Shown piece by piece: positions 8,441-47,300 of a stretch of DNA of 64,000 nt. Position 1 is the stretch's first letter. Each line of letters begins with the position of its first letter. The DNA is taken from positions 539,257-603,256 of the forward strand of contig CBDAKK010000008.1 of assembly GCA_965196605.1 (NCBI GenBank). Direction: 5' to 3'. This stretch comes from Spirochaetia bacterium (lineage in GTDB: Bacteria; Spirochaetota; Spirochaetia; WTKD01; G963693115). The translations under genes were made by a program, and so were the position numbers. The notes below the pieces were generated by a model, which saw only the letters and a program-made list of their open reading frames with translations, did not search any database and was not told the DNA's origin.

Positions 8441-8454
8441 GCTTTGGTGCATGC

Positions 8455-9330
8455 TTGCCTTTGTGGGGGGTGTATACCCCCACGCCCCCCGTGGGTAAGA
8501 TGCGCATTTGCGCTACGCGCGCGAGGCTGCACGCCGTGTGTGTTCTGCTTGCGCCGTTTTTTATGAACGCTTCTGCGGCTAAGACGCTAGCGTGCTACCA
8601 GCGGTATTGTATGAACGTCTCTTGTTGCCACGACGTAGGATGCACTATGAAAACATTTCGGACGGCTGTACTTTCTTTTTTCTTTTTTCAAAATAACGCG
8701 AGCAGAGCGAGCGGGCGCCACTGCTAGATAGTGGAGCGTTAGCGAAACATGAAATAGAGCAAGCGACAACAAGAAAGGTACCAAAGAAAAAAAGAAAAAG
8801 GAGCCTGCGGCTACAGCCGCAGGAACAGTGTTACGCTGCACGCAACATATGAAAACTATACACAAATAAGTTTGTGTGAATGGCCTTCCCCCCGGCGCTC
8901 AATGCGTCCCATCCATGGGGCGGCTGTGATGACGCTCACAAGCGTAGCGAGGGGATGCAAACTATTGCATAAGCGCCGCTGTGCGGTGCAAAGATGGAAC
9001 TTGCATCAAAAGAGTCGAGAGCCGAAGGCGACAGCCGTAGCAGGGATGCTACGTATTGGCTGCCATGGATGGTACGGGTGCAAACTACTGCATAAGTGCC
9101 GCGATGCGGCACAAACATGGAACTTGCACCAAAGTCGGGAGCGCTGACAAGCGCGATCGGCTAGAAACAATTAAAATAAGTGTCGCGCAGCGACACAGAC
9201 ATGGAGCTTATAGCAAACTCGCTAGTCTTATGAGATATGACACGGACAACGCGCTTACGCGCGATTATTTTATTTATATCCGTAAGTACCTTGAGGTGCT
9301 ACACACAAGTGGCGCAGATTTGCTTCAGAT
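8455..9330. repeat. composite intergenic repeat cluster 1. Contains the G-rich palindrome module, the 'cacgccgtgtgtgt...cgcgcgtagcgc' module and about three reverse-orientation copies of the ~98-bp 'gcaaactattgcataagcgccgc' unit
   Basis: These modules recur at 17270-17840, 40064-41230, 43300-44110 and 46460-47300 (see findings). The ORFs within are artefacts of the repeats. Confidence 0.8.
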
Positions 9331-9334
9331 GTGG

Positions 9335-9465
9335 GGCTACGCCATAGGGAGCAAGACACGAGTATAGGAAGCTACGCGGGTGAGGCTACGCCATAGGAAC
9401 TAAGATACTGAGTTTAGGAAGCTATGCGGGCGAGGCTACCGCCATAGGGGGTAAGAGACAAGCGC
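9335..9465. repeat. tandem repeat, about 2.7 copies of a ~49-bp unit (ggctacgccataggga.caagacacgagtataggaagctacgcgggtga)
   Basis: Direct reading: copy 1 at 9335-9383, copy 2 at 9384-9433 and a partial copy 3. Confidence 0.8.
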
Positions 9466-9640
9466 AAATTGTAAAAAAGACACCAATGACGAGCGCGCGG
9501 TGCTGGGAAGCTGGCGTGTAGGCACACAAGCTTATATACATGCGTGTTTCTGCACGGGTGGCTTTGCGCTGTGTGCTTTGGTACTCATGGGTGAGGTGTT
9601 GGTGTATGGTGTGTTTGAGTTTGCAGAGCAAAAACGAGAA
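9445..9640. repeat. left copy of a ~190-bp direct repeat flanking the two-lipoprotein cassette (partner at 12525..12740)
   Basis: Shared blocks acaagcgcaaattgt..caccaatgacgag...ggctttgcgctgtgtgctt..., about 70-75% identity with the partner. Confidence 0.7.
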
Positions 9641-9660
9641 AGGTAAAAAATGATTTTTTC

Positions 9661-9689
9661 TTGCAAACTTCCTTTTAGTGAGGTATAAT
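9661..9689 (+). promoter_or_regulatory. consensus sigma70-type promoter, TTGCAA-N17-TATAAT
   Basis: ttgcaa at 9661-9666, an exact 17-nt spacer and tataat at 9684-9689, upstream of a small ORF and the lipoprotein gene at 9981. Confidence 0.6.
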
Positions 9690-9980
9690 TTAATTGCATA
9701 ATTGTTTCATAAATCTTTCATTTTTGGCATAGAGGTAGATATGAATGCTCATAAAAGAAGGGTATTGTTCATTTTCTTTTTTACTCTTACACTCGCTGCA
9801 ACTACATTCTTGTACACAAAAGAGGGCGCGTGCCTACAAGGCCGCGTAGAAGCGCGTACACATGTGCGCATAACCATAACAAATACAGGAGGTGTGGCGT
9901 AGATAAGTCTTGCATATTTTTTCTCAGGTCTGCGTTTTTATGGCGCATAAAACAAAGCGTGAGTTTTATAAGGAGTTATC

Positions 9981-19129: not shown

Positions 19130-19960
19130 ATGGTGTTTGTACATACATGTGTATATAAAATAGTATGTGGAATAGGGTGTAATGGTGTAACGATGATGGT
19201 GTATCAAGTTTTGCTTGTAGCGCAGTATGTAATGGCTGCAATTGTTTTTGTGGCTCTTTTTAAGTATGTAGCAGCCTATGGCCGCTATGTTGATGATAAG
19301 AAGGGGGCTGCAACGCGCTTTATTTCCTATAGGCGGGGCTGGCTTATTATGGAAGTGCCTGCGGTTTTTACGATACTTATTATGTATGGTGCGGCACTTG
19401 CTCTTGGTAAAAAGCTCAGCATCTTTGCGCTTGCCTTTCTCATTGTGTGGGAAATACATTATGTATATAGAACCTTTATATTCCCTTTTTTAAACCGAAA
19501 CAAGGCGCATGAGTTTACGCTACCCGTAGTCATTGGTGGGCTTGTTTTCAATATCATCAATGGGTTTATCAATGGTTGGGCCTTGTTTTTTACGCCACTC
19601 TTAGAAACGGTGTTGAGTAGAATGATGTATGTGTACATTGGGGTAGCGGTGTTTTTTGTGGGATTTGTTGTTCACGTTACCAGTGATAAAATATTACGGG
19701 ATGTGAAGCGTGCCAATAAGGGGGGCTACGGGGTGCCTCATGGCTTTTTGCATAGTTATGTGGCTGCTCCTAATTATTTTGGGGAAATCCTCCAGTGGTT
19801 TGGATTTTATATTGCAACTGCGTCTCCGGCAGCCTTGGCCTTTGCCTTATTTACGTGTGGAAATCTCATTCCTCGTGCGTATAGGCACAGAAAGTGGTAC
19901 AGGAGTAATTTTACAGAATATCCGCAAAGTCGGAAAATAATTATTCCCTTTGTGTGGTAG
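19130..19960 (+). CDS. 3-oxo-5-alpha-steroid 4-dehydrogenase (SRD5A/DUF1295) family membrane protein
   Basis: C-terminal motif KGGYGVPHGFLHSYVAAPNYFGEILQWFGFY matches the steroid 5-alpha-reductase family signature (GG..EYVS.ANFLGEI.EW). The true start may be the Met at about 19192. Confidence 0.65.
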   Translation: MVFVHTCVYKIVCGIGCNGVTMMVYQVLLVAQYVMAAIVFVALFKYVAAYGRYVDDKKGAATRFISYRRGWLIMEVPAVFTILIMYGAALALGKKLSIFALAFLIVWEIHYVYRTFIFPFLNRNKAHEFTLPVVIGGLVFNIINGFINGWALFFTPLLETVLSRMMYVYIGVAVFFVGFVVHVTSDKILRDVKRANKGGYGVPHGFLHSYVAAPNYFGEILQWFGFYIATASPAALAFALFTCGNLIPRAYRHRKWYRSNFTEYPQSRKIIIPFVW

Positions 19961-19987
19961 AGACACGGGGGAGATAGGGATTGATGT

Positions 19988-20971
19988 ATGGATAGTATAG
20001 CAGTTACAGGTGCTTCGGGGCATTTGGGAAATGTGATAGTCCGAAAGTTGCTGGAGAAGGGGCTCTCGGTTCGAGTTTTGGTGCACAAGGATGCTCGTGC
20101 CTTGGAAGGCTTGGATATTGTGCGAATACATGGGGATATACAGGACATTAATGCATTGCGTACTTTGTGCAAGGGGTGTAAGACGCTGTATCACTGTGCT
20201 GCGCATATTTCTATAGTGTCGTATGAAAAGAAGAAGCTGCACAACGTGAATGTGGAGGGAACCCTCAACGCCATGAAGGTTGCGCGTGAGCAGGGAATGC
20301 GACTGGTGTACATAAGCTCCATAGAGGCTATAGGAAAACAGCATGAGGGCGTGCACAGTGAGAGTGATGGCTTTAGTCCTGAAGATACGCCTATAGATTA
20401 TGGGAAAAGCAAGGCTGAAGCAACTTTGAGCATTATTAAGGCGGCGCAGTCTGATGAACTGGATGCCGTGGTGATATGCCCCGGCGGAATAACGGGGCCT
20501 TTTGAGTTTGGTACGTCTAAAATAGGCAAGATGGTGCGCGACTTTGTTGGCAAGAAATTACCCTCCGGTATTAAAGAGGGGGGCTTTTGCTTTGTGGATG
20601 TGCGCGATGTTGCAAATGCAGCTATAGCTGCTGCGGACAAGGGGAGGCGTGGAGCACATTATATTGCTTCATCTCAATACATAGAGCATAAGGCAATGTT
20701 GGGTATGATTGCAGAACATAGCGGCACGCCCATGCCTAAGTATTATATTTCCACGGGGTTTCTTAAGCTTATTGCACCGCTTGTGGAGTTGTGGGGTTTG
20801 CTCAGTATGAAGGAGCCTTTGTTTTCTTCTGGTGCAGCGCGCGTCTTAGAAAGCAAGTTTAAAGTGCATTCCGCTTGTTTGGAGCAAGACTTGGGGGTGG
20901 TTCCACGCCCATTGGTGGAGTCGCTTATAGACCAAGTTGCGTGGTATGAGGGCAAGAGCGTTCCATTATAA
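19988..20971 (+). CDS. NAD(P)-dependent epimerase/dehydratase (extended SDR; 3beta-HSD/cinnamoyl-CoA-reductase-like)
   Basis: N-terminal Rossmann motif VTGASGHLGNVIVRKLL and the extended SDR length (327 aa). Confidence 0.7.
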   Translation: MDSIAVTGASGHLGNVIVRKLLEKGLSVRVLVHKDARALEGLDIVRIHGDIQDINALRTLCKGCKTLYHCAAHISIVSYEKKKLHNVNVEGTLNAMKVAREQGMRLVYISSIEAIGKQHEGVHSESDGFSPEDTPIDYGKSKAEATLSIIKAAQSDELDAVVICPGGITGPFEFGTSKIGKMVRDFVGKKLPSGIKEGGFCFVDVRDVANAAIAAADKGRRGAHYIASSQYIEHKAMLGMIAEHSGTPMPKYYISTGFLKLIAPLVELWGLLSMKEPLFSSGAARVLESKFKVHSACLEQDLGVVPRPLVESLIDQVAWYEGKSVPL

Positions 20972-21058
20972 AAAAGCAACAGGCGCCATGCTTGTAAAGG
21001 CTTAGTACATCGTCTACGCCCAGCCGTAATGCAAGCTTTGCACATGCATAAAAATGCC

Positions 21059-21964: not shown

Positions 21965-22012
21965 ATTTGTATTGTAGAAAAAACAGGCATGGTAAGAATG
22001 AGCACAAGGTGC

Positions 22013-22513
22013 TTATGAAAAGAAAAGAATATTTAGTGCTACGAAAGAGGGTTTAAAGAACTTTATTATTTTTTTCTGTACCTTGTTGCCTGCAGAGTCT
22101 ACTACAACCTTGCCATTGTCCTGCATGGTGAGCGTGTCTTTTATGATTCTGCCTCGCACATTTGCAGAGAGCTGTATGGTGCTTGCAGAACCTGTGCTTT
22201 TTTGCGTCCCTGCAAGGTCAAAGCCTTTTTCAAAGCTGCGGCTTGTTTTGTTGCCAAACCACAGAGAACCACGCACGCTGTTGTTTTTTCCGCGTGTAAG
22301 TCGGTATTGCACAATGAGGTTTTTTGTGCCAAGTGCTAGAGAAAAAGAAAGTCGTTTTGCAAAAGGAAGGCTGCGTCCCCCACGAGCTGCCATAGATTTT
22401 GTTTCCATAGGGTCTATGGTTCCTTCATAGGTGCCAAGTGTGTGTTGTGGCGTGTTCTCACAGCTGGTGAAAACAAAGCTTACAGTTAATAAAAAGCATA
22501 AAAGTTTTTTCAT
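22013..22513 (-). CDS. small lipoprotein, tandem paralog family member 1
   Basis: Signal peptide plus lipobox FVFTSC. Shares the G(T)YEGT motif and the C-terminal DNG..L.D..GNK..KK with the two neighbours. Confidence 0.55.
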   Translation of the reverse strand: MKKLLCFLLTVSFVFTSCENTPQHTLGTYEGTIDPMETKSMAARGGRSLPFAKRLSFSLALGTKNLIVQYRLTRGKNNSVRGSLWFGNKTSRSFEKGFDLAGTQKSTGSASTIQLSANVRGRIIKDTLTMQDNGKVVVDSAGNKVQKKIIKFFKPSFVALNILFFS

Positions 22514-22551
22514 ATGTAATTACCTGCCTGCAATAAAGGTGCATAAAAAAA

Positions 22552-22589
22552 CTCCCAAGGCGTAGAGTACGCCCGACGGGAGTTTTTTT
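22552..22589. terminator. bidirectional rho-independent terminator
   Basis: ctcccaaggcgtagagtacgcccgacgggag hairpin flanked by an A-run (22545-22550) and a T-run (22583-22589). Confidence 0.7.
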
Positions 22590-22616
22590 ATATATCAAGG
22601 TTAAACGAGCAATGTG

Positions 22617-23195
22617 CTACTTCTTTTTGAGTTTGTTGCCCATAGAGTCTTCTAATACCGCGCCATTGTCCTTTACCTTCAATTCTCCAGGGACTTTTTT
22701 TCCAAAAGCAGATTTTGGATTTACAACTATTTCTTCCAATTGCTTTTTTACTTTTTTGCGTTGCTCAGGAGATAAAGGTAGGGAGTTTAAAGAAGAAAGT
22801 TGTGTTGTTGCAGTTTTTTTTGTTTCTTCTAGTACTATTTTTTGATCTTCTGTACTTAAGCCTTCCAATGTAGTTTCTAGTGTGTACGCCAATATAACCA
22901 TCCCAGCTCTATCTTCTAAATTTCCTGTTATCTTACCAATCTTGATAAACTTACTATCAAATTTTCTTAAAACAGTTCCAGTAACTTTATTGTTGCTTTC
23001 TCGTTTGAGTTTGAACTGACTAGTTACGTTGTTAGCAGTTCCTTCATACGTGCCGTCTATGTTGACAGACGATGCATTATTGCAGCCCTCCGCTGACATG
23101 GAAATAAGTAGCATGAGACCAAACAAAGCGGCCATTGATGTGATTATTCTTTTCATAGAATACTCCTTTTTATTATTAAAATAATAAGTTGTCAA
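22617..23195 (-). CDS. small lipoprotein, tandem paralog family member 2
   Basis: 192 aa with signal peptide. VNIDGTYEGT and C-terminal KDNGAVLEDSMGNKLKKK, paralogous to 23432..23977. Confidence 0.55.
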   Translation of the reverse strand: MTTYYFNNKKEYSMKRIITSMAALFGLMLLISMSAEGCNNASSVNIDGTYEGTANNVTSQFKLKRESNNKVTGTVLRKFDSKFIKIGKITGNLEDRAGMVILAYTLETTLEGLSTEDQKIVLEETKKTATTQLSSLNSLPLSPEQRKKVKKQLEEIVVNPKSAFGKKVPGELKVKDNGAVLEDSMGNKLKKK

Positions 23196-23373
23196 TACAA
23201 CTTATTATTTATTAATAGTAGGATGCTATGATTTTTTTTCAAGTCTGCGAAGAGAAAAATTATGAAATATTTTCTTGATGAAAGCAACGTGAAAGTGTGC
23301 CTTTATGTAAATAAGGCATTTTATTATTGTGGTGTTTCTTGTGTGTTTTTTTATTACACATGCAATAAAAAAA

Positions 23374-23405: not shown

Positions 23406-23431
23406 ATATCAAGGTGAAAAAAAGCAATGTG

Positions 23432-23977
23432 CTACTTCTTTTTGTACTTCTTGCCGGCAGGGTCTTCTAAGCTAGCGCCGTTATCAAGTACTTTGAACTT
23501 GGCCGCCTTGTTGTCCTTAAACGTGTACAAAGTTTTGAATTGAGCGAGAACTTTTCCAACTAATGTTGTATCTGCTGTAGCCGCTGCGCTAAACGCCTGC
23601 TTTAATTTTTGATTAATTTTATCGGGAACTTGTTTCCCAAGTTCTTTGTCTTGCACTGGTGTTACGGATGTGTTGAGTGTAATGCCACCTCCTTCATCTT
23701 TTAGGTCTCCCTTTATATCGGCAACTTTAATAAAGCCAAGAAACCCATTGGCGTTCATTTCTATGGTTCCGCTGACCTTTTTATTATTATCGCGTTTCAT
23801 GGTAATCTTAAGGGTGCCTTGGAATTTTTCTTTTCCAATTAGTGTTTTAAAATTCCCAGCTGGTAGTTCATCGGTTCGTTCGTAGGTGCCGTCTACGTTG
23901 ACGTTTGAGGCGCACTGCGCTGAAATAAGTAAAACAAGCCCCAGTAACGAAGCCATTGGTATGATAATTCTCTTCAT
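23432..23977 (-). CDS. small lipoprotein, tandem paralog family member 3
   Basis: 181 aa with signal peptide. VNVDGTYERT and C-terminal LDNGASLEDPAGKKYKKK. Confidence 0.55.
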   Translation of the reverse strand: MKRIIIPMASLLGLVLLISAQCASNVNVDGTYERTDELPAGNFKTLIGKEKFQGTLKITMKRDNNKKVSGTIEMNANGFLGFIKVADIKGDLKDEGGGITLNTSVTPVQDKELGKQVPDKINQKLKQAFSAAATADTTLVGKVLAQFKTLYTFKDNKAAKFKVLDNGASLEDPAGKKYKKK

Positions 23978-24321: not shown

Positions 24322-24915
24322 TCAATAATATTTGCTTTCGCGATATGTTTGTTCTCTCATTATTTGCGGGGAAATGAGTCTTAAAAATAAGTCAACATCC
24401 GACTTGTCAAGGTAAATTGGCTCTAAGGTTAACGCCACATTAGAGGTGGAAGTCAAGGAGCCAAACATTATAACCAGCTGGTGTCGCTGCGCGCTTTGAG
24501 AGAAAAAAACAAATACAAGTTCTGCCGAACGCTCTAGTATTGGATAAAAGGTTTTTTCAGGAAAAACCTTTGAAATATGAATGCTTGCATTGAGGTTGTT
24601 TATACTCGTTATTTTCTTTTCTAGGGCTTCTTTGTTGTTCGTTGCTATTCTAGCCCACACGTAGTACTTTTCAAGTGCATCCCGCATCGCTTGTACACTG
24701 GCGGGGTCAAAGTAATAGTAGGCGCTACTGCCTATGGAGTTATAAAATTTTACGTATAAGGCATTATCTTGATAATAAATAGCGCTCTCTTGTTCTACAA
24801 ATTGCTGTGAAGCGCTGTCGTATAATTTATATGTAAATGCTTGGTTCGTAACATCTGTAGCAAAAACCAAAGACACGTGTACGAGTATAAATAACACACT
24901 ACATATTTTTTTCAT
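24322..24915 (-). CDS. hypothetical secreted protein in an AT-rich island
   Basis: 197 aa with signal peptide (VLFILVHVSLVFA). Flanked by intergenic DNA of about 25% GC (24000-24320; 24916-25100). Confidence 0.5.
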   Translation of the reverse strand: MKKICSVLFILVHVSLVFATDVTNQAFTYKLYDSASQQFVEQESAIYYQDNALYVKFYNSIGSSAYYYFDPASVQAMRDALEKYYVWARIATNNKEALEKKITSINNLNASIHISKVFPEKTFYPILERSAELVFVFFSQSAQRHQLVIMFGSLTSTSNVALTLEPIYLDKSDVDLFLRLISPQIMREQTYRESKYY

Positions 24916-25228: not shown

Positions 25229-27376
25229 TTAGAAAACACCGCCATGTTTCTTGACTTTGGCGACAGTGGCGCTGCCATTAATACGCTTATGTAGCATGTC
25301 AAAAACATCGACTCCAAGTTGTTCCAGTACGTCTATAATGTCTATCATCACCCAGTTTTCCTTCAACAAGTTGCCTTCGCGCCTCCAAAAGTCCATAACT
25401 CGCATGGTGCAGGCAATGCCCGTAGCCTTGAGGCCGAGCCAACCATCACCCGTGTGTGTTGCGTACATGGAGGGGAAACCAAAGTCGCACGCGTAGTTTC
25501 CTTCAGCGTATGAGGCAAAGTAATTCTCTGTGTTCTTGGTCATAATACCCCTGTTGGGGAATGCCGTGAGGTAGGGAAACTGGTGATAATTTTGAAACCC
25601 TGCGAGTCCTCGCGTGGTGCCAATGCCTGCGGGGCTGTACCACATCATTTCCTTTGCATTCCAGTATTGAGACAAGTCTCCCATAGAAGTGGGGTCTTTT
25701 CCATCATAACGGCAGAGGGCATCAAGCATGGCTAAGGTGATATTCAGCGTTTTCTTGCTCTCCGTTTTTTCTACGGGGTATGTAATGATGCCGTCACAAG
25801 TCATGGGGGTGCCTACCATGTATGCCGCACCCCTGCTGGGGAAAATATCAAAGCCCGCTTGGTGTATGAGGTCTAATACATCAAGGAGGTACCAAGCGCG
25901 TGTAATTTTTCCATGTTCTAGAACAAAGTGTGCTTGGTATCGTATGGACGCAAGCTGATAGCTGGGTGGAATGCCAAGCCATGAATGCTCAAAGCTTCCT
26001 AGAAAATTCCCGGCAATACTTACGCATTGCTTTTCTTTATACGTGCCGCCCATGACTATGTACGGGGTATCCTCAATGTCGGGGAAGGCATGGTACAGGG
26101 GCTGCAGAAACTGCGTGCAATAGGCCTGTACTCCGTGTATTTCATGAAAGGGCTTTGAGGCATGAAGTACTACATCATCCGACATATGCGCAGCGACTAT
26201 GCCCATGGGCACGGCATCTGTGCGCGCAATGTCGCGATTAAATGCGTTGATATAGGAGAGTACCGTTTTTTTATTTCGTGTGTTAGCATCCGCTGTGTGA
26301 AGTAATGTATGCCTAGTTTTGGGGTGTGCGGGCAGTGCGTATATTTGGCAGAGTACATCGAACATATCGAACACTGACCATTCTTCTTGAATTTTGCCAT
26401 CTACAACTTGAAAGTGCGTTATGCCAACGACGTGTATTATTTTTTCTGAGGGAGCGCCAAAAACTCCATAATTGCAATGAACTCCTGTGATAGTCCAACG
26501 CACTGCAACCTTGTCTCCCGTCTTTCCCGTGTTGCACGTTATTCGTTCTATAAAAATATCCGCATTGGGAATGGAAGAAAAAAACGCGACAAAGTAGTCC
26601 CGGATTTGTCCGGTGCCACAATATTGCTTTTCGCGAATAGAATGTAAGACGGCATTCTCAGCGTAATATTGTTCCACGCGGTTAAAATAGTGCTTGTGCC
26701 ACAGCTCTGTAAAAAGATCCACGACAAGGTCTATAGAACTACCTCTCGTGTTGTTTGTAAACTCGCAACTCGCAATATTGCATGGGGTAATGGCGTTTTC
26801 TTCTCGTACCACGCGTTGGTCTTCTACTTCAAAGTTGAAATTGTAATGATGAGACTCTTTTGCCAACTCAAGCGGGTCACAGCCCAGTTGTTCAAGTATG
26901 TAATAATTATCGCGCACAAGCCATTCCTCTTCTATAATGTTGTTTGCAATAATGCAGTCCGCTATGCCCCGAAGGAAGATTTTTCTCCCCGTAGGCGCGC
27001 CATAGGCTACGCTGTGTCCCAAATGGGTGGCGGTGCTGCCCAAACGGTGCGAAGAGAAAAACTTGTCCCCCTTGGCTTCAGACCAAATGACCTCTTCGCC
27101 ATAAGGTACACGGTCGGGAAAGGTTTGCAAGGTCTTAAGCGTACCGCTGATAACCGCATCCCTACCACTATGAGTGAACAAGCCCATGTGCAAGGTTATG
27201 TCTTCAGCATAGGTGTTGTACAACTCCCCAATACCTTTGTTTTCCCAAATATCATGCGTAATGGAAAGAATGTAATCGACAATGTTTACGTACTTCTTAT
27301 CAAAATTTGTTAGCGTTTGTTTTTCTCCCTTTTTAAGCTGCTTTGCGCTGTAGACAAGTGCATCTATGCCATTCAT
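25229..27376 (-). CDS. protein with four tandem SnoaL/ester-cyclase-like (NTF2-fold) domains
   Basis: Four ~175-aa repeats, each ending in a G(I/A)P.TG(K/R)...EEW.V.D....L.QLG motif (for example GAPTGRKIFLRGIADCIIANNIIEEEWLVRDNYYILEQLG and WLGIPPSYQLASIRYQAHFVLEHGKITRAWYLLDVLDLIHQAG). This resembles the single-domain COG5485 ester cyclases. Confidence 0.45.
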   Translation of the reverse strand: MNGIDALVYSAKQLKKGEKQTLTNFDKKYVNIVDYILSITHDIWENKGIGELYNTYAEDITLHMGLFTHSGRDAVISGTLKTLQTFPDRVPYGEEVIWSEAKGDKFFSSHRLGSTATHLGHSVAYGAPTGRKIFLRGIADCIIANNIIEEEWLVRDNYYILEQLGCDPLELAKESHHYNFNFEVEDQRVVREENAITPCNIASCEFTNNTRGSSIDLVVDLFTELWHKHYFNRVEQYYAENAVLHSIREKQYCGTGQIRDYFVAFFSSIPNADIFIERITCNTGKTGDKVAVRWTITGVHCNYGVFGAPSEKIIHVVGITHFQVVDGKIQEEWSVFDMFDVLCQIYALPAHPKTRHTLLHTADANTRNKKTVLSYINAFNRDIARTDAVPMGIVAAHMSDDVVLHASKPFHEIHGVQAYCTQFLQPLYHAFPDIEDTPYIVMGGTYKEKQCVSIAGNFLGSFEHSWLGIPPSYQLASIRYQAHFVLEHGKITRAWYLLDVLDLIHQAGFDIFPSRGAAYMVGTPMTCDGIITYPVEKTESKKTLNITLAMLDALCRYDGKDPTSMGDLSQYWNAKEMMWYSPAGIGTTRGLAGFQNYHQFPYLTAFPNRGIMTKNTENYFASYAEGNYACDFGFPSMYATHTGDGWLGLKATGIACTMRVMDFWRREGNLLKENWVMIDIIDVLEQLGVDVFDMLHKRINGSATVAKVKKHGGVF

Positions 27377-28449: not shown

Positions 28450-28458
28450 TGCAGGTGT

Positions 28459-32034: not shown

Positions 32035-32058
32035 ATTGCGCTTGCGATTGGAGGTATT

Positions 32059-32766: not shown

Positions 32767-32839
32767 TGCATAAGCGCGCAAGGCGTGTGGAAAAATTTAA
32801 GGTTTTAGGAAGTTTTGTTGCTCTCAAAAAGCGCTAGAA

Positions 32840-33268: not shown

Positions 33269-33269
33269 A

Positions 33270-33998: not shown

Positions 33999-34000
33999 AT

Positions 34001-35317: not shown

Positions 35318-35320
35318 ACG

Positions 35321-38942: not shown

Positions 38943-39002
38943 AAGTCAAAAAACAAAAAAAGCCGTAGACATATGCTGCGACTTTTATTGGTGCTCCTCC
39001 TA

Positions 39003-40058
39003 CTACTGAAGACGTGAAGGCTTCTTAGGCACGCTTATTTCACCAGCAAGCACCTTCGCCTTGTAGGCTTCAACGCTTTCCAAAAACTCTGCTTCTACGT
39101 TAGGGTTTTCTTCGGGAATAGCAACGCCATTATTTGCTAAGGAAAAAATCAAGATCTCCCCTCCGGGAAACTTTCCTTCATGCGAGAGCTGCGCAACATC
39201 ATGAGAAACTACATCCACGCGTTTTACCATGGAAGTGAGCATAACCGACTTTCCGTCAGCGTATACCCCATCTTGATACTGGTCGCGGTCTACCCCTATG
39301 ACCCAAACAGCCTCCCCTGCCAGTACACGATCTTTTGCTTCTTTAATAGCGCCATTACCCGTTGCTCCCGCTGCTGAAAACACCACACTCGCGCCCGCAT
39401 CATACATTTTTGCCGCAAGCGCCTGTCCAATTTGCGGCGCTGCAAAGTCCCCTGCATACTCGACAATAAGTTCAAGATCTGGAGCAACCGCTTTCACACC
39501 TGCCTCAAAGCCCGCTTCAAATCGGTGTATGAGTTCAAACTCCATACCACCTATGAACCCTACTTTTGTTCTACCTTCTGCCTTCGACTGCAAGCCCGCT
39601 ATAATTCCCACCAGAAAAGAACCCTCCTCTTCATTGAAGATTGCGCTTACCACATTGGGGCCTGGAGCTACTGTGTCTACAAGTAGAAACTGCGTGTCGG
39701 GAAAATTCTTTGAGACTTCTGTCATAGCATCTTGAAACAAAAAGCCCGCCGCAACAATAAGCGTAGCACCCTCATCCGCAAGCGTACTCAAGTTTGGAAT
39801 ATAATCCGCATCCGTACCCGACTGCAAATACTTATATTGGCTTTCGGAAAAGCCATGTTCATTTGCAAATCGCTCAATGCCTTCCCACGTACCTTGATTA
39901 AATGAGGCATCATCAATACCCCCTATATCTGTCACCAAAGCAACTGAGAATTGAGGCTCCTCAGCCTTTTTTTCCTTTGTGCACGCAACGGCAAAAAGGA
40001 CTGCTAGCGCTGTGAACACCGCCACATATATATTATGTTTCTTCATACATTCCTCCAA
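39003..40058 (-). CDS. BMP family (TmpC/PnrA-like) purine-nucleoside-binding lipoprotein
   Basis: Lipobox LFAVAC, then FSVALVTDIGGIDDASFNQGTWEGI, closely resembling Treponema TmpC/PnrA. Confidence 0.85.
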   Translation of the reverse strand: MEECMKKHNIYVAVFTALAVLFAVACTKEKKAEEPQFSVALVTDIGGIDDASFNQGTWEGIERFANEHGFSESQYKYLQSGTDADYIPNLSTLADEGATLIVAAGFLFQDAMTEVSKNFPDTQFLLVDTVAPGPNVVSAIFNEEEGSFLVGIIAGLQSKAEGRTKVGFIGGMEFELIHRFEAGFEAGVKAVAPDLELIVEYAGDFAAPQIGQALAAKMYDAGASVVFSAAGATGNGAIKEAKDRVLAGEAVWVIGVDRDQYQDGVYADGKSVMLTSMVKRVDVVSHDVAQLSHEGKFPGGEILIFSLANNGVAIPEENPNVEAEFLESVEAYKAKVLAGEISVPKKPSRLQ

Positions 40059-40063
40059 ATGTT

Positions 40064-41230
40064 TTAACTATTACCATGGTGATGCTTTTGGCTCGTTATG
40101 TAAAGAATGAACATGCCTAAGCCGAGAGTGGGGGAGCTGCCCCCACGCCCCCCTTGGGGTAAGACACGGTATTGCGCATGAGCGCTTTGTGGGTGAGCGC
40201 CCCCCCACCCCCCTTTGGGCAAGACGCCTCTTTGCGCTATGCGCGAGTGTTTGTGCCATGGCTCACGCGATGTGTTGCTCACGCTATTTGTTGCCAAGCA
40301 GCTATTCTAAATACGCTATTCATTCGGATGGCCGTTCTTTCTTTTCTTTTTTACCATCCATGGCAGCCAATGCGCCCCGTCCATGGGGCGGCTGTGATGA
40401 CGCAAAAAGAGTCGAGAGCCGAAGGCGAACGGGTGCAAACTATTGCATAAGTGCCGCAATGCGGCACAAACATGGAACTTGCACCAAAGAAAGAACCAAA
40501 GAAAAGAAAAAAACATCCTGTGTGCTAAAGCAGTAATGGCATAGATACTGTGCGTAAGTATTAAAAAGTACCCAAGAAAGTCACGAACGTAGTGAGGGGA
40601 TGCAAACTATTAAATGGCGGAGCGAAGCGGTCGCTCGCCCCATGGATGGGGCAAATAAGAGCGCCATGGACGGTGCAGAAATGGAGTACTCGCACCAAAG
40701 AAAGAAAGTAAGCTATCCGAAGATTTAGCATATCGCGCTAGCGCCTTAGTCGCAAAAGGCGTTCACGCAATGCTGCGCAAGCAGAACACATACGGCGTTA
40801 GCCCCCGCGCGTGTAGCTCAGTACAGCGTCTTACCGCAGTGGGGGTGTGGGGGCGTGCTGTCCCCACAAAGGCACGTATGGCACGCAGCGTGTTTCTTGT
40901 GTGGTTCGCTCGGTGTCCCTTAAGTGGTATGTGTATGCCTTGCAAGGACGAAAGACGAAAGCCATAGGCGAAATAAGCAACGCGCTAAGGAAACGCTAGG
41001 AAAACGGAAAACGCTTTGCGCAAAGCGTCATTGCGTAAAAAGGGGGCGGTGGGTGGAAAGCCACGCGGCTCGGGGGCTTGGGGCTCAAGTTGTCATGAGC
41101 CTACGCCTCATGTGTATATTCCGCGGCGCGGCTTAAAGCCTCAAGCAGTTGTCCGCTGTCGCTTGTGCTGCGTACTACACGGTAGCATGAGCCCGCCGCG
41201 CCTACATACGCGCCTTAGCTGCTACTTACA
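40064..41230. repeat. composite intergenic repeat cluster 3 (reverse orientation; includes a second sub-copy at 40740-40900)
   Basis: G-rich palindromes at 40130-40215 and 40838-40872, ~98-bp units at 40370-40500 and 40560-40700, and the 'gtgccatggctcacgcgatgtgttgctcacgctatttgttgcca' module. The ORFs within are spurious. Confidence 0.8.
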
Positions 41231-41615
41231 ACGCGCGGCAGTACTCGGCGTAGGCGTCTTCGTCCATAAGGGCTTGCAGTTCTTCTTCTAGTTTGAGCAA
41301 GTCTGAGACTTGCAGCTTAAGCACCCAACCCTCACCAAAGGGGTCTTTGTTTACACACTCGGGGTTGCGCTGCAAGGCCTTGTTTGCCTGTACCGCGGTG
41401 CCTGATATGGGGGTGTAAATGTCCAATGCCGCCTTTGAAGACTCAATTACTGCAACCACGTCCCCCGCCGCATAGTGTTTCTCGTCCTCTGGCACATCCA
41501 CATATACCACATCACCCACTACGGACTGCCCATAGTCTGAAATGCCCATAACGAGAACTGCCCCATCGCTCGTCTCTCTTTCAACCCATTCGTGCGTGCT
41601 TGTAAAATACCTCAT
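41226..41615 (-). CDS. gcvH: glycine cleavage system H protein (lipoyl carrier)
   Basis: Lipoyl-lysine motif ESSKAALDIYTPISG. 129 aa. Confidence 0.85.
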   Translation of the reverse strand: MRYFTSTHEWVERETSDGAVLVMGISDYGQSVVGDVVYVDVPEDEKHYAAGDVVAVIESSKAALDIYTPISGTAVQANKALQRNPECVNKDPFGEGWVLKLQVSDLLKLEEELQALMDEDAYAEYCRAL

Positions 41616-41689
41616 TCCTACCCATGTATTGTAGCACCTCTTTCCATTTTTGCGTTACGTCTGCGCGCGTGGACTACACTGAAGAGTAT

Positions 41690-43294
41690 ATGCCTTGCAC
41701 TCCTTCAAAAAACATGCCCCCCCTGTTGCGCGTGCACAACTTGTGTGTAAGCGCACCCCACCATTCACAGCGCATTGTACGTGACGTGTCGTTTTGCATG
41801 CACCGTGGAGAGCACATTGCGGTCATAGGTGACTCGGGCTCGGGGAAAACAACGCTGCTCAAGGCCATTGCGGGGGTTCTCCCTCATGCGTGGCATGCAT
41901 CGGGTTGTGTGCAGGTGCCGCACCATGAGCTTGCGTACATTATGCAAGAGCCCAAGGCAGCGCTTAACCCCATACGCAGCATTAAGGCCATGTTTGCAGC
42001 GCTGCGTCATAGCAGGCGCTTTGCCGGCATGAGCGCAAAGCAAACAAGCGAGCGCATTAGGCAGCGCATGCATGCAGCATTTAATGCAATGAAACTCATT
42101 GACAATGCTGAGGCAGACCTTGCAAAGAACGGGTCGGGCTTTTCGGACTTACACAACTTGCTTGCAAAGCGCCGTACGCAGGTCTCAGGAGGCATGGCGC
42201 AGCGCATTATGGTGGCCTTGGCCATTACTGCGGGTTCTACGGTGGCACTTGCTGATGAAGTGAGTTCCGCGCTCGATGAGAAGCACGAACGCAAAACCAT
42301 TGAGACCTTGCTTGCCGCTATGCAAGGCGTGCTGTTTGTAACGCATAGAATGAACCTTGTTAAGGACTACTGCCATAAAGTGCTGGTGCTTCAGAATGGT
42401 GCAGTGCATTTTTTTGGTGACGTGGCGCAGTGGTTGCGGGAGCACGGTGATGATGAACACAACGCGGCAGGTGTTATGACGGGGCATGCTAGCACGCAAG
42501 GGCGTAAAAAGAGCCATGCGCGCGCTCAAAACGGCAGCACTGCTAGGCATGGCGGGCTTGGTGGCGTTGTGTTGCGCTGTGAGCGCGTAGGCGTGTACTA
42601 TGACAAGCCGTCGTTTTTGCCACGCGCAACAAGCGGTGTGCGCAACTTTGTGCTGCAAGGCCTCAACTTTAGCGCGCGCGCGCGAGAGGTTGTCTTGGTG
42701 CGTGGCGAAACCGGCTGTGGCAAAAGCACCTTTGCGCATGTGTGCGCAGGGCAGCTTCAGCCTTGCACGGGGGCGGTGTGCATGCATAATACCCCCATGC
42801 CCTATGGTTCGGCGCGTGCCATGCGCATTTTTAGGCGGGACGTGCAGCTTATTTCGCAAGTGCCCTCCTTGAGTTTTAACCCGCTGCGCACGGTGCTCAG
42901 CAGCCTCATGGACGCGCACGCCACAATGTCGCGGGCAGAAAAACAGCGCAGTCAGGAGTACCTGCAGCAGCTGTGTAAGACCATGCACATTTCTCAGGCG
43001 CAGCTTGCGCGCTTCCCCCATGAGCTTTCTGGTGGGCAGCTCCAACGCATCGCCATTATACGCGCCTTGCTGCCGCACCCAAACATCCTCATCCTCGACG
43101 AACCGGTGAGTCACTTGGACCCACGCATACGCATACAAGTGTTGGAGCGCATAGCTGCATTGCACGCACAAACGCGCATAACGCTTATTGTTATTTCGCA
43201 CCTTGAGGAGGTATGCGCCTTTATAAAACGTAGCTATGCGCAATACACCGCCTATGCCCTAGAACATGGCGCGCTTGTGCCGCTTGAAACCTAA
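41690..43294 (+). CDS. ABC transporter ATP-binding protein with duplicated NBDs (DppD-DppF fusion, YejF/GsiA-like). No cognate permease is adjacent
   Basis: GDSGSGKTT/VSGGMAQRIMVALAI and GETGCGKST/LSGGQLQRIAIIRAL. The ORF-track start is 41624; the likely start is MPCTPSK or MPPLL. The gene is notably GC-rich (about 60%). Confidence 0.7.
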   Translation: MPCTPSKNMPPLLRVHNLCVSAPHHSQRIVRDVSFCMHRGEHIAVIGDSGSGKTTLLKAIAGVLPHAWHASGCVQVPHHELAYIMQEPKAALNPIRSIKAMFAALRHSRRFAGMSAKQTSERIRQRMHAAFNAMKLIDNAEADLAKNGSGFSDLHNLLAKRRTQVSGGMAQRIMVALAITAGSTVALADEVSSALDEKHERKTIETLLAAMQGVLFVTHRMNLVKDYCHKVLVLQNGAVHFFGDVAQWLREHGDDEHNAAGVMTGHASTQGRKKSHARAQNGSTARHGGLGGVVLRCERVGVYYDKPSFLPRATSGVRNFVLQGLNFSARAREVVLVRGETGCGKSTFAHVCAGQLQPCTGAVCMHNTPMPYGSARAMRIFRRDVQLISQVPSLSFNPLRTVLSSLMDAHATMSRAEKQRSQEYLQQLCKTMHISQAQLARFPHELSGGQLQRIAIIRALLPHPNILILDEPVSHLDPRIRIQVLERIAALHAQTRITLIVISHLEEVCAFIKRSYAQYTAYALEHGALVPLET

Positions 43295-43299
43295 GGCTT

Positions 43300-44058
43300 C
43301 ACATGTGAAAGGTTGCCTTGTGTGGCACGCCCCTGCAAAGGCAAGGCACAGGGTGCGGCGCTCCACCGTAGCGTAGTGCTAGGGAGTCTGACAGCACTAT
43401 GTCAGAGAGTCTGACAGCACTATGTCAGGGAGTCTGACGGCACTATGTCAGACACCACCGTAGCATAGTGCGGTACTCCACCGCAGCATAGTGCGCTGCC
43501 GCCTTGCCACATGTGCTAAGACACAGCCCCCCGCAGCACTGAGACGTGTAAGCTGCACGCCGTGTGTGTGATGGCTCACGCTATTTGTACCATTCATGGC
43601 ACACAATGTGTCCCATGAATGGTGAGCAGCGCACTCACACAAACTTACTTCCATACAATCTTCATACTTGCGCACAGTATCTATGTTATTATTGCTTTAG
43701 CACACAGGATGTTTTCTTTTCTTTCTTTGGTTCTTTTCTTTCTTTTCTTTTCCGTCCTGAAAAGAAAAGAAAGAAAGAACGGCCAACCGAAGTGTTTGCT
43801 TAGTGCGCTCACGTCATGGCAACAAGAGGCGTTCACGCAATACTGCGCAAGCAAAACACACACGGCGTGCAGCCTACCCGCGCGTAGCGCAATATAGCGT
43901 CTTACCCCAAGGGGGGTGTGGGGGCGCTCCCCCACAAAGCGCTTATGCACATATAGCGTCTTACCCCAAGGGGGGGGGTGGGGGCGCTCCCCCACAAAGG
44001 CAAGACACAACGCTATGTGGTATGAAGGGTAGTTGCTTTATATATCATGCTTACATTT
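43300..44058. repeat. composite intergenic repeat cluster 4, bounded by 38-bp perfect direct repeats (43241..43278 and 44061..44098)
   Basis: Contains the 23-bp array, the 'gtgatggctcacgctatttgt' module, the 20-bp-arm hairpin 'ttctttctttcttttcttttccgtcctgaaaagaaaagaaagaaagaa' and two G-rich palindromes (43915-43990). Confidence 0.8.
43381..43449. repeat. three tandem 23-bp units, each containing the palindrome CTGACAgcactaTGTCAG
   Basis: Units at 43381-43403, 43404-43426 and 43427-43449, flanked by 'ccaccgtagcatagtgc' motifs (43362, 43454, 43476) that are complementary to the unit core. Confidence 0.85.
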
Positions 44059-44129
44059 GTGCAGTACACCGCCTATGCCCTAGAACATGGCGCGCTTGTG
44101 CGTCTTGAGAATAAAAGTTTACTTTGTGC

Positions 44130-45173
44130 TTATTGTAAGCGCGTTGGTACTTTTGGTATGGTAAGTTTGCCCGATAATACCTGTTGTTTGTAGCGCGATA
44201 CGAGCTCTAAAAATTCCGCGCTTACGTTGGGGTTTTCTTGTGGTATACCCACACCTCCGTTTTCTAGCGAGAATGTAAGTACTTTTCCACCAGGAAAATT
44301 GCCTTGCTTTGCTAAGTTTGCAACATTGTGTGTGGCAACATCTACGCGTTTTACCATGGAGCTGAGAATTACAGATTTGTCTTTAGCGTAAATGCCTTCT
44401 TCATATTGGTCTCTATCAACCCCAATAATCCATACACGTTCTCCGTTTAGTGCACGATCCTTCGCTTCTTTAATAGCACCGTTTCCAGTAGTTGCAGCTG
44501 CGTGAAAAATCACGCCAACGCCAGCGTCGTACATTTTTGCAGCAAAGGCTTGTCCAAGGGACGGGGCAGAAAAGTCAGCGGCGTATTCCACAAGTATTTC
44601 TAAATCTGGTGCAACTGTTTTCACGCCTTTTTCAAACCCGGCTTCAAAACGATGTATCACATCAAATTCCATTCCACCGATAAAGCCTACTTTTTCTTTC
44701 CTTTCTGCTTGTGATTGAAGCCCCGCTATAACTCCAACGAGGAATGAGCCTTCTTCTTCTTTAAACACAGCGCTTACAACATTGGGCTTTGGGACGGCGG
44801 TGTCAATGATGAGAAACTGTTTGGTGGGGAAATTTTGAGCAACTTTTGTAATGGCTTCGGTAAATGTAAAGCCCGCCGCCACAATAAGTGTTGTATCGTT
44901 GTCGGCAAGTGCGCTCAAATTTGGAAGATAATCGGAATGAGTACTTGATTGCACATAGGTATACTGCGCCTTTGAGAGATTTTCTTGAGATGCAAATTTT
45001 GTAATACCTTCCCATGCGCTTTGATTAAACGCCTTGTCATCAATGCCACCTATGTCGGTTACGAGCCCCACAGAAAATGACGTAGATTGTTTTTTAGTAC
45101 AGGCGTTTAAACCGCCTCCCATGATCAATGCTATTGATAGTATGTAGAAAGTCGTCTTCATAAGTTCCCCCAT
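44130..45173 (-). CDS. BMP family lipoprotein, orphan paralog of 39003..40058
   Basis: Lipobox GLNAC, then FSVGLVTDIGGIDDKAFNQSAWEGI. About 60% identical to the first BMP protein, with no adjacent transporter genes. Confidence 0.85.
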   Translation of the reverse strand: MGELMKTTFYILSIALIMGGGLNACTKKQSTSFSVGLVTDIGGIDDKAFNQSAWEGITKFASQENLSKAQYTYVQSSTHSDYLPNLSALADNDTTLIVAAGFTFTEAITKVAQNFPTKQFLIIDTAVPKPNVVSAVFKEEEGSFLVGVIAGLQSQAERKEKVGFIGGMEFDVIHRFEAGFEKGVKTVAPDLEILVEYAADFSAPSLGQAFAAKMYDAGVGVIFHAAATTGNGAIKEAKDRALNGERVWIIGVDRDQYEEGIYAKDKSVILSSMVKRVDVATHNVANLAKQGNFPGGKVLTFSLENGGVGIPQENPNVSAEFLELVSRYKQQVLSGKLTIPKVPTRLQ

Positions 45174-45242
45174 GGTTTCTTATTCAGGGTATCAAATCTG
45201 TATCTTTTTAAAGATAGCAATATTGTATACTACAATAGTTGC

Positions 45243-46457
45243 TTGTTTATGTTTAGGATAATGACTTTTATGAAACTTCTGCTCCGCTTTTATTGCTTGG
45301 TATTCTTAGGGTTTTTTGTGGCTGTGGTTTGTGAGCCGCTCATGGCTCAAGAGATAGATGCACGGCTTGAGACCAAGCAGCAGGATGATGGCTCTGTTGT
45401 CTTTTCTGTTACAAACAATGAGGCTGTGCCTGTGTTTGTAGCGGTGCATTTTACTCAGTTGGATGGGCTTGTTGCAGATAGGGATGCTCCGATTGTTATT
45501 CCGCTTGAGGTGGGAGAGAATGAGGGGGTGCTTGCCTTGCGTCGCAAAGAGAACGCGAGGAGGCAGACCTACCGTGTTTCGTATCATTTTTTGTTTGTAA
45601 ACCCTGCTGAGGTACAGCCTGATGGTTTTTTGTATTATTTGCCTTTTGAGCATGGAGTGAAGCATGTAATAACGCAGGGGTGGCATGGGAGTTTTAGCCA
45701 TAGTGGGCAGAACACGTATGCTGTGGACTTTGACATGCTTGAGGGCGAAAAGGTCTATGCTGCTCGGGAGGGGGTAGTGGTTGCGGTGAAGCGGGACTCT
45801 CGTATAGGTGGGACTTCCCAAGCTTATGCAAAACACGCAAACTATGTGCTTATTCGGCATGCTGATAACACCATAGCGAGTTATGTACACTTGATGTTTA
45901 ATGGTGCGCTTGTAGACGTGGGGCAGCGCGTGGTGCTTGGGCAGCATATAGGCTATGCGGGCAAGACGGGCTTTGCAAGCGGGGCGCATTTGCACTTTGA
46001 TGTGCGCGCGTCTACCTTTGACCGCGGCATGCAGAGTGTTCGTTTTAGCTTTAGAGACAAGGACGGCGCGGCTGTAGAACCACAGGCTTACGCTACGTAT
46101 TATGGGCGCTTTCCCGGCGGTGCGGATTTTACTGAACTCCGTGGAAGCGACATTAGCGCGGCTACCTTTGAGGATCATAGTGTGGAGCTAGCTAGCACCA
46201 CTGCCTTTGATGGGCTGCACATACGTAAGGAGACCTACGACTCGGTGGTGGTGCTTTTTATAGCCAATGCATTTTCGTACGCGGTAGACGCGCGTGTTAC
46301 GCTTACGCTGGGTAATTTGCGCATGGAGCAATCCATGCCCATAGGCGTAGTAATACCCGCTCGTAGGGAAGTCTTTCTCGGTATTGCGCGTATACAAAAT
46401 GCGCGCAAGGGTATTGCCGTGCGTAGTAGCATTCGTTACAACCGCGCACAGGAGTAA
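45243..46457 (+). CDS. M23 family metallopeptidase (second copy) with an N-terminal membrane anchor
   Basis: YAVDFDM...VYAAREGVVVAV...HANYVLIRHADNTIASYVHL...GKTGFASGAHLHFDV. Confidence 0.8.
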   Translation: MFMFRIMTFMKLLLRFYCLVFLGFFVAVVCEPLMAQEIDARLETKQQDDGSVVFSVTNNEAVPVFVAVHFTQLDGLVADRDAPIVIPLEVGENEGVLALRRKENARRQTYRVSYHFLFVNPAEVQPDGFLYYLPFEHGVKHVITQGWHGSFSHSGQNTYAVDFDMLEGEKVYAAREGVVVAVKRDSRIGGTSQAYAKHANYVLIRHADNTIASYVHLMFNGALVDVGQRVVLGQHIGYAGKTGFASGAHLHFDVRASTFDRGMQSVRFSFRDKDGAAVEPQAYATYYGRFPGGADFTELRGSDISAATFEDHSVELASTTAFDGLHIRKETYDSVVVLFIANAFSYAVDARVTLTLGNLRMEQSMPIGVVIPARREVFLGIARIQNARKGIAVRSSIRYNRAQE

Positions 46458-46459
46458 GT

Positions 46460-47300
46460 GCCTTGTGGGGGCACGCCCCCACACCCCCGCGCGTCTTGAG
46501 TGCTAAGCACGGGTTACTTCGTGTTTGTTGCTTACGCTATTTGTGCCATCCATGGCACAGTTGTCGCCTTCGGCTCTCCACTCTTTTGATGCAAGCTCCA
46601 TGTTTGCACCGCACAGCGGCGCTTATGCAATAGTTTGCATCCCCTCGCTACGCTCGCGACTTTTTGGTTCTTTTTCTTTTCTTTTGATGCAAGTTCCATG
46701 TTTGTGCCGCATTGCGGCACTTATGCAACAGTTTGCATCCCCTCGCTACGCTCGCGACTTTTTGGTTCTTTTTCTTTTCTTTTGATGCAAGTTCCATGTT
46801 TGTGCCGCATTGCGGCACTTATGCAACAGTTTGCATCCCCTCGCTACGCTCGTGACTTTGGTACTTTCTTCTTTGGCGCGAGTATTCATACAAACTTACT
46901 TACATACAATCTTCATACTTGCGTAGAGTAGCTATGTTATTACTGCTTTAGCACACAGGAGGCTTTTTTCTCTTTTCTTTGGTACTTTCTTTTCTCTTTT
47001 TTGCATCCATAAAAAAGAGAAAAGAAAGTACAGCCGTCCGAGGCATCATCATATCGCGTCACGCGCCGTGGCAACACAGAGCGTGAGCAACATACCGCGT
47101 GAGCCATCACACACACGGCGTGTAGCTTACTCGCGCGTAAGCGCAGAACGACCAGCAGTAGGGGTGTGGGGGCGTGCTGCCCCCACAAAGGCACGCGTGG
47201 AGCGCAAACAAGGGGGGTGGGTGGGGTGTTATTGCTATAAAATGGGTATTGTCGTATTCTTTTAGGTAGTGATACTTGGGTATTGCGGGTGCTATGTTCC
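46460..47300. repeat. composite intergenic repeat cluster 5, including three tandem ~98-bp units at 46583..46876
   Basis: G-rich palindromes at 46465-46495 and 47160-47225. Units 2 and 3 (46681-46778, 46779-46876) are near-identical. Hairpin 'ctttcttttctcttttttgcatccataaaaaagagaaaagaaag' at about 46985-47030. Confidence 0.85.

Follow-up and report, generated by a model that had tools for sequence, protein, structure and literature searches.

The window analysed here comprises 64,000 nucleotides from a Spirochaetia bacterium (GenBank assembly GCA_965196605.1, contig CBDAKK010000008.1, positions 539,257 to 603,256 of the forward strand). It carries six intergenic blocks of repeated DNA, B1 to B6, which hold colinear copies or fragments of one composite, hairpin-rich element. 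We interpret these blocks as a lineage-specific, non-coding and non-autonomous selfish composite repeat of the kind represented by BOX elements, bacterial interspersed mosaic elements (BIMEs) and MITEs (miniature inverted-repeat transposable elements), and give this interpretation a probability of about 0.6. The family is new and previously undescribed, but it is of an ordinary kind, comparable families being known in many bacteria, and it opens no new class of system. All coordinates below are window positions.

One composite element in six intergenic blocks

The first-pass annotation of this DNA had drawn six repeat blocks built of six modules (a to f), and all of them proved to be present in place. 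When the window was compared with itself by BLAST, the blocks were found to share modules far above chance. The repeated DNA lies at 8446-9142 and 9457-9578 (B1), 12484-12661 (B2), 17314-17846 (B3), 40128-40887 (B4), 43545-44002 (B5) and 46547-47206 (B6), and the only other repeats detected in the window were two paralogous gene pairs. The claim that the blocks make up about 7% of the window holds for the blocks as drawn (4.8 kb, 7.5%), but the DNA that is verifiably repeated inside the window amounts to only ~3.2 kb (5%).

Motif counts were compared with expectations from dinucleotide shuffles of the sequence. The pattern TGGGGG-N2-9-CCCCCA, which describes the hairpin of module a, was matched 8 times against 0.03 expected (8464, 17296, 17809, 40129, 43919, 43979, 46466 and 47167), and two degenerate forms lie at 40190 and 40845. 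The pattern GTGCCGC-NNN-GCGGCAC was matched 5 times (0.14 expected) and CCATGGAYGG 8 times (0.09 expected), all eight of the latter within blocks. Runs of five or more G or C are likewise enriched, 33 of the 90 runs falling within the 7.9% of the window that the blocks occupy. A regular-expression scan for G-quadruplex motifs (four runs of at least three G, loops of 1-7 nt) found none in any block. Tandem Repeats Finder (TRF) detected a 98-bp unit in 3.0 copies at 46582-46874, with 93% matches, and in 1.9 copies at 17421-17604; all tandem arrays of the window except one fall in blocks.

The modules occur in both orientations, as had been described, but they do not form a free mosaic: BLAST chains and two alignments (A1 and A2) show colinear copies of one composite element. 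Read in the orientation of B3, B5 and B6, its order is inverted a; c, which carries the CCATGGAYGG hairpins; zero to three tandem e-units of ~98 bp separated by CT-rich spacers; d; a CT arm, a loop and an AG arm; b; and a terminal a that is often doubled. A full copy measures ~0.5-0.8 kb and is bounded on both sides by the G5/C5 hairpin a, the two hairpins being inverted relative to each other. Two copies are inverted, namely B1 and the left part of B4. To the right, B4 continues with a further right arm in forward orientation; a hairpins therefore stand at both outer ends of this block and face outward, as they also do in B3 and B6. B2 consists of a d fragment plus a module, X, that it has in common with B1. 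The right arm (AG arm, b and a; ~240 nt) is present in all six alignable copies with a mean column identity of 62%.

Module a takes the form GCGTCTTACC-GGGGGGTGTGGGGG-loop-CCCCCACAAAGGCA, that is, a G5/C5 hairpin of 16-19 nt with GCGTCTTACC as its conserved flank. It forms direct doublets in B4 and B5 and inverted pairs ~650 bp apart. A covariance model of the e-unit retrieved 11-12 units, all of them inside blocks and none in the rest of the window: three plus one degenerate unit in B1, three in B3, two in B4, none in B5 and three in B6. By BLAST, identity between blocks is itself a mosaic, with 92-98% for e-units, 84-93% for d modules and 70-81% for the arms. The copies have diverged to 70-98% identity, and the closest relative of a copy changes from module to module; for example, e-units match in the pairs B1e2-B4e1 (97%) and B3e0-B6e1 (98%), and module d in the pair B3d-B5d (93%).

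The best-delimited copy is B6 (46458-47225, + strand, 768 bp), which was defined by BLAST, TRF, the covariance model and alignment with L002, the syntenic locus of a relative described below. It comprises an inverted a (46458-46490), c (46521-46559), three 98-bp e-units (46582-46874), d (46886-46970), a perfect 21-bp CT/AG hairpin (46982-47031), b (47040-47150) and a (47155-47194), followed by a partial a. B3 (17258-17846, + strand) was delimited by self-comparison, the hairpin motif and covariance-model matches, and sits between two divergent genes, encoding an acyltransferase and rpsU. Its first e-unit (17258-17369) includes an a-like hairpin (17296-17311) and is followed by d (17369-17427), two e-units (17413-17510 and 17513-17615), c (~17610-17650), the AG arm (17655-17680), b and a (17787-17828).

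B1 (8446-9229, - strand) was recognised by colinear BLAST matches to B3, B4, B5 and B6, by alignments A1 and A2 and by covariance-model matches. It begins 6 nt past the stop codon (8440) of a DUF327 gene and contains a (8446-8500), b (8503-8592), an AG arm (~8660-8690), a degenerate e-like insert (8681-8782), the CT arm with d (8771-8882), c (8898-8935) and e-units at 8925-9022, 9048-9145 and 9146-9229. Further on in the same block lie an unstranded private tandem repeat with a period of ~50 bp (9331-9448, 2.4 copies; TRF; repeat family D18), whose unit occurs in no other block, and copy 1 of module X (9457-9578, + strand; repeat family D20), which is 77% identical to 12533-12661. The latter segment is copy 2 of X, found by BLAST on the + strand of B2. 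The isolated d fragment of B2 (12484-12523, - strand) shows 85-87.5% BLAST identity to d of B3, B4 and B5; sequence and translation show that gene 11638-12492 runs into it with its final codons and stop (...FVVKQ*).

The left part of B4 (40128-40711, - strand) starts 70 nt upstream of the start of pnrA. It is colinear with the reverse complement of B3 (77% identity over 335 nt) and was also picked up as a 60-bp doublet by TRF and by the covariance model. It contains the a-doublet (40128-40245), b and c (40247-40400), an e-unit (40397-40500), d (40507-40575) and a variant e-unit (40578-40711). The right part of B4 (40675-40887, + strand; AG arm, b and a) is 78% identical to B5 over 177 nt and belongs to alignment A2. 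B5 (43300-44010, + strand), which has no e-unit, was defined by BLAST, TRF and hairpin comparison. It includes a degenerate inverted a (~43305-43345), a 23-bp hairpin unit repeated three times (43384-43452), b' and c (43545-43630), d (43635-43719), a 22-bp CT/AG hairpin (43730-43781), b (43782-43891) and an a-doublet (43892-43999). The 23-bp unit is private to B5 and forms a hairpin with a 7-bp stem (TCTGACA...TGTCAGA).

Conservation of the hairpins

The e-unit is predicted to fold, on both strands, into two nested 7-bp stems, GATGCAA/TTGCATC on the outside and the hairpin GTGCCGC/GCGGCAC within. In an alignment of seven copies, 96.9% of the stem cells are paired and four pairs are changed on both sides. 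One position occurs as A-U, G-C and C-G, and the other compensatory changes are G-C to A-U, U-A to C-G and C-G to U-A. The covariation score was reached by none of 500 shuffles, and slid controls gave 0-1 such pairs. An alternative e-unit hairpin, TGCAA/TTGCA, showed no covariation and was discarded. The CT/AG hairpins are perfect or near-perfect over 21-22 bp, and all five stem differences between B5 and B6 are compensated. The conserved secondary structure whose absence would have counted against the family is seen in both e-unit and CT/AG hairpin, as compensatory changes.

In the a hairpins, by contrast, the stems are invariant and the loops variable, which says that the stem sequence matters but is uninformative on structure. 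An outer stem around module a (GTCTTACC/GGCAAGAC) was not consistent across 11 copies. The ends of B6 (46458-46490 and 47155-47194) are ~30-bp terminal inverted repeats that pair in the predicted fold of the whole element, for which z is -13.7 (+ strand) and -7.3 (- strand). Individual modules also fold better than their shuffles (z from -3 to -7). The RNAalifold consensus of the 240-nt right arm was left unused, as it had no covariation term (+0.23) and contained dubious long-range pairs. Judged from these sequences, the hairpins are maintained, which RNA selection, selection on single-stranded DNA or arm-to-arm correction would account for alike. They offer a natural test of what keeps long perfect hairpins intact, selection or arm-to-arm correction.

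One explanation of this conservation, which we regard as unlikely, is that the elements are functional structured RNAs kept by selection, either small RNAs or cis-acting elements of 3' or 5' untranslated regions (UTRs) such as stabilisers, processing sites or attenuators. The compensatory changes that keep the nested e-unit stems paired and the module folds are what it would predict, and so is the 92-98% identity of e-units in distant blocks compared with 70-81% for adjoining modules. Two e-units also carry an A.C mismatch on the + strand of the element, which on the - strand would read as a G.U pair, but this strand hint goes back to one shared event, and the invariant a stems say nothing about structure. 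Co-transcription is probable because the elements abut stop codons, and a terminator-like hairpin with a T-run lies at 9250-9263, just past the B1 copy (8446-9229). Good sigma-70-like promoters are found just outside B1 (9661-9689) and B3 (18030-18059); inside the elements the only promoter-like site is one weak 9/12 match.

Against an RNA function, e-units vary from none to three in number and in position, B5 has none at all, and the elements face either way with respect to the flanking genes, which are arranged in tandem, convergently or divergently. Rfam 15 at gathering score matched only RNase P and two tRNAs, all outside the blocks. A permissive Rfam scan of 40050-47330 gave nothing except sub-threshold microRNA-hairpin noise on the CT/AG hairpin. 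The structured small RNA family considered by the first-pass annotation gains no positive support, given the lack of any Rfam match, the single weak promoter-like site and the variation of architecture and orientation among copies.

Insertion sites and further copies

The window's ABC-F protein has an identical counterpart in the database, on a 1,144,098-bp contig, and the next relative is only 53% identical. The locus of that relative, L002, shares the gene order of the window: pnrA operon, gcvH, ABC-F, M23 peptidase, TPR, mreBCD, PBP2 and rodA. Neither sequence comparison nor the e-unit covariance model found any of the repeat modules in L002. An empty-site comparison, which had been proposed earlier, showed short spacers in L002 where the window has B4 (129 vs 1167 bp), B5 (20 vs ~1950 bp, the window spacer holding B5 plus a pnrA paralogue) and B6 (131 vs 871 bp). 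Since B4, B5 and B6 have no counterpart in the L002 spacers, they are lineage-specific insertions. Moreover, L002 12917-12955 aligns with window 47226-47264, which places B6 as a 768-bp insert directly past the stop codon (46457) of the M23 peptidase gene.

Blocks were found in tandem, convergent and divergent intergenic contexts, and copies directly follow stop codons or lie upstream of promoters. The 3' ends of genes have been reshaped by two insertions; in one of them, the final codons and stop of a lipoprotein gene come from the d fragment of B2. B5 is bracketed by a 51-bp direct repeat whose first copy is the functional 3' end of the ABC-F gene (43237-43287, + strand). The second copy (44058-44108, + strand; repeat family D13), a displaced remnant of this 3' end, sits between B5 and the pnrA paralogue's end. 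The two are 92% identical and correspond to the last 17 ABC-F codons, both encoding QYTAYALEHGALV; their local alignment scores 41, whereas shuffled sequences score 7.0 +/- 1.1. At 9310-9327 there is an 18-nt echo of the DUF327 3' end, which was not significant.

Copies of the family also exist outside the window, where 12 distinct annotated but spurious "proteins" are built of repeat modules. Four of these open reading frames (ORFs) lie on the window's own 1,144,098-bp contig, none being more than 79% identical to the window, and the remaining ones on contigs of 485,402, 353,308, 299,798 and 79,419 bp. Copy number read from spurious ORFs in this way is a lower bound and amounts to at least 12 further copies on five contigs, or at least 18 blocks in all. 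A search of representatives also returned P0016 (993 aa, 8 stretches), which is an unrelated repetitive protein. It may be that a single assembly contains all the contigs carrying repeat ORFs. Since the four further contigs together with the source contig amount to 2.36 Mb, we abandoned the idea that the genome is reduced to 1.14 Mb. None of the three outcomes named beforehand as damaging to the family was encountered: modules recur beyond the window, the copies are not a simple tandem duplication of one locus, and the secondary structure is conserved.

We favour the selfish composite repeat as the explanation. Copies were inserted into the short, otherwise compact intergenic spacers of this lineage. 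They would have spread as selfish DNA, either through an enzyme that acts in trans and is encoded at another genomic site, or through copying by recombination or template switching. The hairpins may be kept since the mechanism of spreading or maintenance would recognise the fold of the single strand, DNA or RNA. For neighbouring genes, the resulting long structured UTRs, displaced promoters and altered C-termini would be by-products rather than the reason for the elements.

Several observations weigh against this interpretation. Where alignment with L002 maps the junction of B6, a possible shared GTG of 3 bp is all that was found by way of a target duplication, and the flanks of B1, B3, B4 and B6 contain no direct repeat above shuffle level; insertion of a classical DDE-type MITE is therefore not supported. 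The 51-bp host-gene duplication at B5 is unlike a short target-site duplication; it suggests insertion by recombination or replication error and points to recombination or replication-based insertion rather than transposition. The excess of e-unit identity (92-98%) over that of the arms (70-81%) could reflect selection on a function, not junk. Finally, the empty sites come from one distant relative (53% amino acid and ~72% nucleotide identity), and the covariation from few, related copies.

Part of this evidence would also suit a non-mobile origin, in which local hairpin-driven duplication, template switching and gene conversion act among intergenic "hairpin nurseries". Besides the host duplication that flanks B5, the 122-bp X modules bracket a two-gene unit, every block has private tandem repeats (50, 23, 60, 16-17 or 98 bp), and the identity pattern among modules is mosaic. 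The long stems are perfect or near-perfect despite divergence, as arm-to-arm correction would leave them. We nevertheless consider such an origin improbable, because recombination alone leaves the first arrival of a 0.5-0.8 kb composite at six or more unrelated sites unexplained. The spread over five contigs, the occurrence in both orientations, the clean junctions beside stop codons and the consistent element ends set by terminal inverted a modules argue in the same direction.

Relation to known repeats, coding capacity and neighbouring genes

The family was not recognised by the first-pass annotation, and it had no match in Rfam or in plasmid, phage or viral collections either. B6 gave no BLAST match in plasmid and phage collections. 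IMG/VR viral contigs yielded nothing beyond one hairpin-only match with unrelated flanks, the 28-nt hairpin GGGGTGTGGGGGCGTGCCCCCAC at 10205-10232 of L004 (uncultivated viral genome, UViG, 2657245503_000001, 56% GC), probably by chance or convergence. An exact pattern search with the e-unit core in 185,579 species-representative genomes and JGI metagenomes returned single chance matches only, namely L001, from an archaeon, and L003. Literature searches for MITEs, repetitive extragenic palindromic (REP) sequences or intergenic repeats of Treponema found nothing relevant.

The closest analogy is with BOX elements of S. pneumoniae and S. suis, which have the structure boxA-(boxB)n-boxC, where boxA and boxC pair and boxB is a variable tandem module that folds by itself (PMC3049150). 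The elements described here share with them paired terminal modules, an internal tandem module of variable copy number that is largely self-folding, an intergenic location and the lack of a transposase; they also create or modify ORFs, cluster with other repeats and show no obvious target duplication (PMC3049150). The comparison is one of architecture only, terminal a/a' around zero to three e-units fitting the BOX-like plan. The present elements belong to a different phylum, are 3-5 times larger, have more module types and a 98-bp rather than 45-bp internal unit, and contain, besides G5/C5 hairpins, one of 21 bp with a polypyrimidine and a polypurine arm. With at least 18 blocks found so far, their copy number is also far lower than that of BOX.

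REP sequences are GC-rich imperfect palindromes of 20-40 nt that alternate in orientation and, in BIMEs, form mosaics with short motifs right after stop codons. They have no target duplication, and their hairpin stem is conserved and the loop variable. REPINs are ~100-nt forms mobilised by REP-associated tyrosine transposases (RAYTs) of the Y1/HUH type. The present palindromes resemble BIME/REP sequences in being GC-rich and occurring in both orientations, in being combined with further motifs between genes and next to stop codons, in the lack of a target duplication and in joining a conserved stem to a variable loop. Unlike REPINs, their inverted a hairpins lie ~650 bp apart, and no ~100-nt REPIN form was found. 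No GTAG-type 5' tetranucleotide was seen either; GCGTCTTACC is conserved instead. The earlier label of MITE/REP-like is correct in that the elements are non-coding, structured and intergenic. REP is an analogy only, since the elements are 10-20 times longer, and transposition, which the label implies, is putative.

Like Correia elements and bacterial MITEs, the elements have terminal inverted repeats of ~26-30 bp and a non-coding, highly base-paired body, are intergenic and multicopy, and are able to alter neighbouring gene ends. They differ in that no TA or other target-site duplication was found, in being larger than most bacterial MITEs and in being GC-rich, not AT-rich, relative to the genome. 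Terminal inverted repeats and dispersed non-coding copies are thus present, but a short target-site duplication is not, and it is on target duplication that membership of the classical MITE class fails. Mycobacterial interspersed repetitive units (MIRUs) are similar in being tandem units of 40-100 bp in intergenic spacers of operons, with a locus-dependent copy number; here the tandem unit is one module of a composite that is bounded by inverted repeats and occurs in both orientations.

A further possibility is that the e-unit is itself the active entity, either as a new structured RNA or as the hairpin substrate of a single-strand (Y1/HUH-type) transposase. We hold this to be quite unlikely. 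If the e-unit were a Y1/HUH substrate, it would represent the first REPIN-like system in spirochaetes, with the older a/b/d scaffolds as landing pads. In line with the earlier statement that no transposase is present, none of the ORFs of the window matches a Pfam transposase or integrase family.

The numerous ORFs of the blocks, already described as spurious, show no excess of differences at the third codon position. Four copies share an open frame of 90-137 aa, but pairwise differences between copies in the longest shared frame amount to 0.36, 0.27 and 0.30 for codon positions 1, 2 and 3, and on these counts a coding reading was rejected. Among 5.8 billion proteins the repeat ORF peptides match only other repeat ORFs, and they have no precomputed Pfam domain. 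Without a codon-position signal and with matches only to other repeat copies, we conclude that the ORFs are spurious. Decay from protein-coding genes, or from a prophage or integrative element, is very unlikely: the frame shared by four copies, the duplication of a gene 3' end next to B5, similar to that at the att sites of integrative elements, and the adjoining pnrA paralogue recall such remnants, but the codon and peptide data speak against a coding origin, the window revealed neither an integrase nor a phage family, and phage, plasmid and viral collections gave no similarity.

For annotation, the public gene calls hold at least 12 spurious "hypothetical proteins" read from the elements, which also affect the start of one real gene (16387-17388) and the end of another (11638-12492). 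The acyltransferase ORF 16387-17388 (- strand) begins inside B3, and VARGCKLLHK, a peptide of the repeat, forms part of its first ~35 residues; the gene itself probably starts with the Met at ~17253. Since the number of 98-bp units varies between copies, these arrays are candidate strain-typing loci. The family also marks intergenic expansion in a poorly sampled Treponema-like lineage. The earlier guess of Treponema agrees with the best solved-structure match of PnrA, T. pallidum TmpC (E 1e-104).

Some neighbouring genes are of interest in their own right. Two PnrA/TmpC-like (Bmp family) lipoprotein genes, 39003-40058 and 44130-45173 (both - strand), encode proteins with 67% identity. Of the two, L002 has the former only; the extra copy in the window lies between the ABC-F and M23 peptidase genes, beside B5. 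Genes 9981-11567 and 11638-12492 (+ strand) encode lineage-specific proteins that match no Pfam or NCBIfam family and carry lipoprotein-type signal peptides; the former contains a run of eight serines. This gene pair is bracketed by the direct repeats of module X (122-129 bp, 77% identity).

Genes 22617-23195 and 23432-23977 (- strand) are tandem paralogues encoding small secreted or lipoprotein-like proteins with 33% amino acid identity, no family match, a shared signal peptide and a C-terminal KKK; 22013-22513 and 24322-24915 perhaps belong with them. The 3' ends of the two paralogues and the DNA downstream (22603-22682 and 23418-23497) are ~74-80% identical. The Rfam matches outside the blocks are a bacterial class A RNase P RNA (62293-62641, + strand, 260 bits) and the adjacent tRNA-Thr(TGT) and tRNA-Tyr(GTA) genes (55867-55939 and 55943-56024, + strand). 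Finally, 25229-27376 and 27421-28449 (- strand) encode two large adjoining proteins with SnoaL-like (ketosteroid-isomerase-like) domains. At ~4-5 kb from them lie genes for a steroid 5-alpha-reductase-like protein (19130-19960) and a 3-beta-hydroxysteroid dehydrogenase (3-beta-HSD)/epimerase-like protein (19988-20971), a set that is unusual for a spirochaete.

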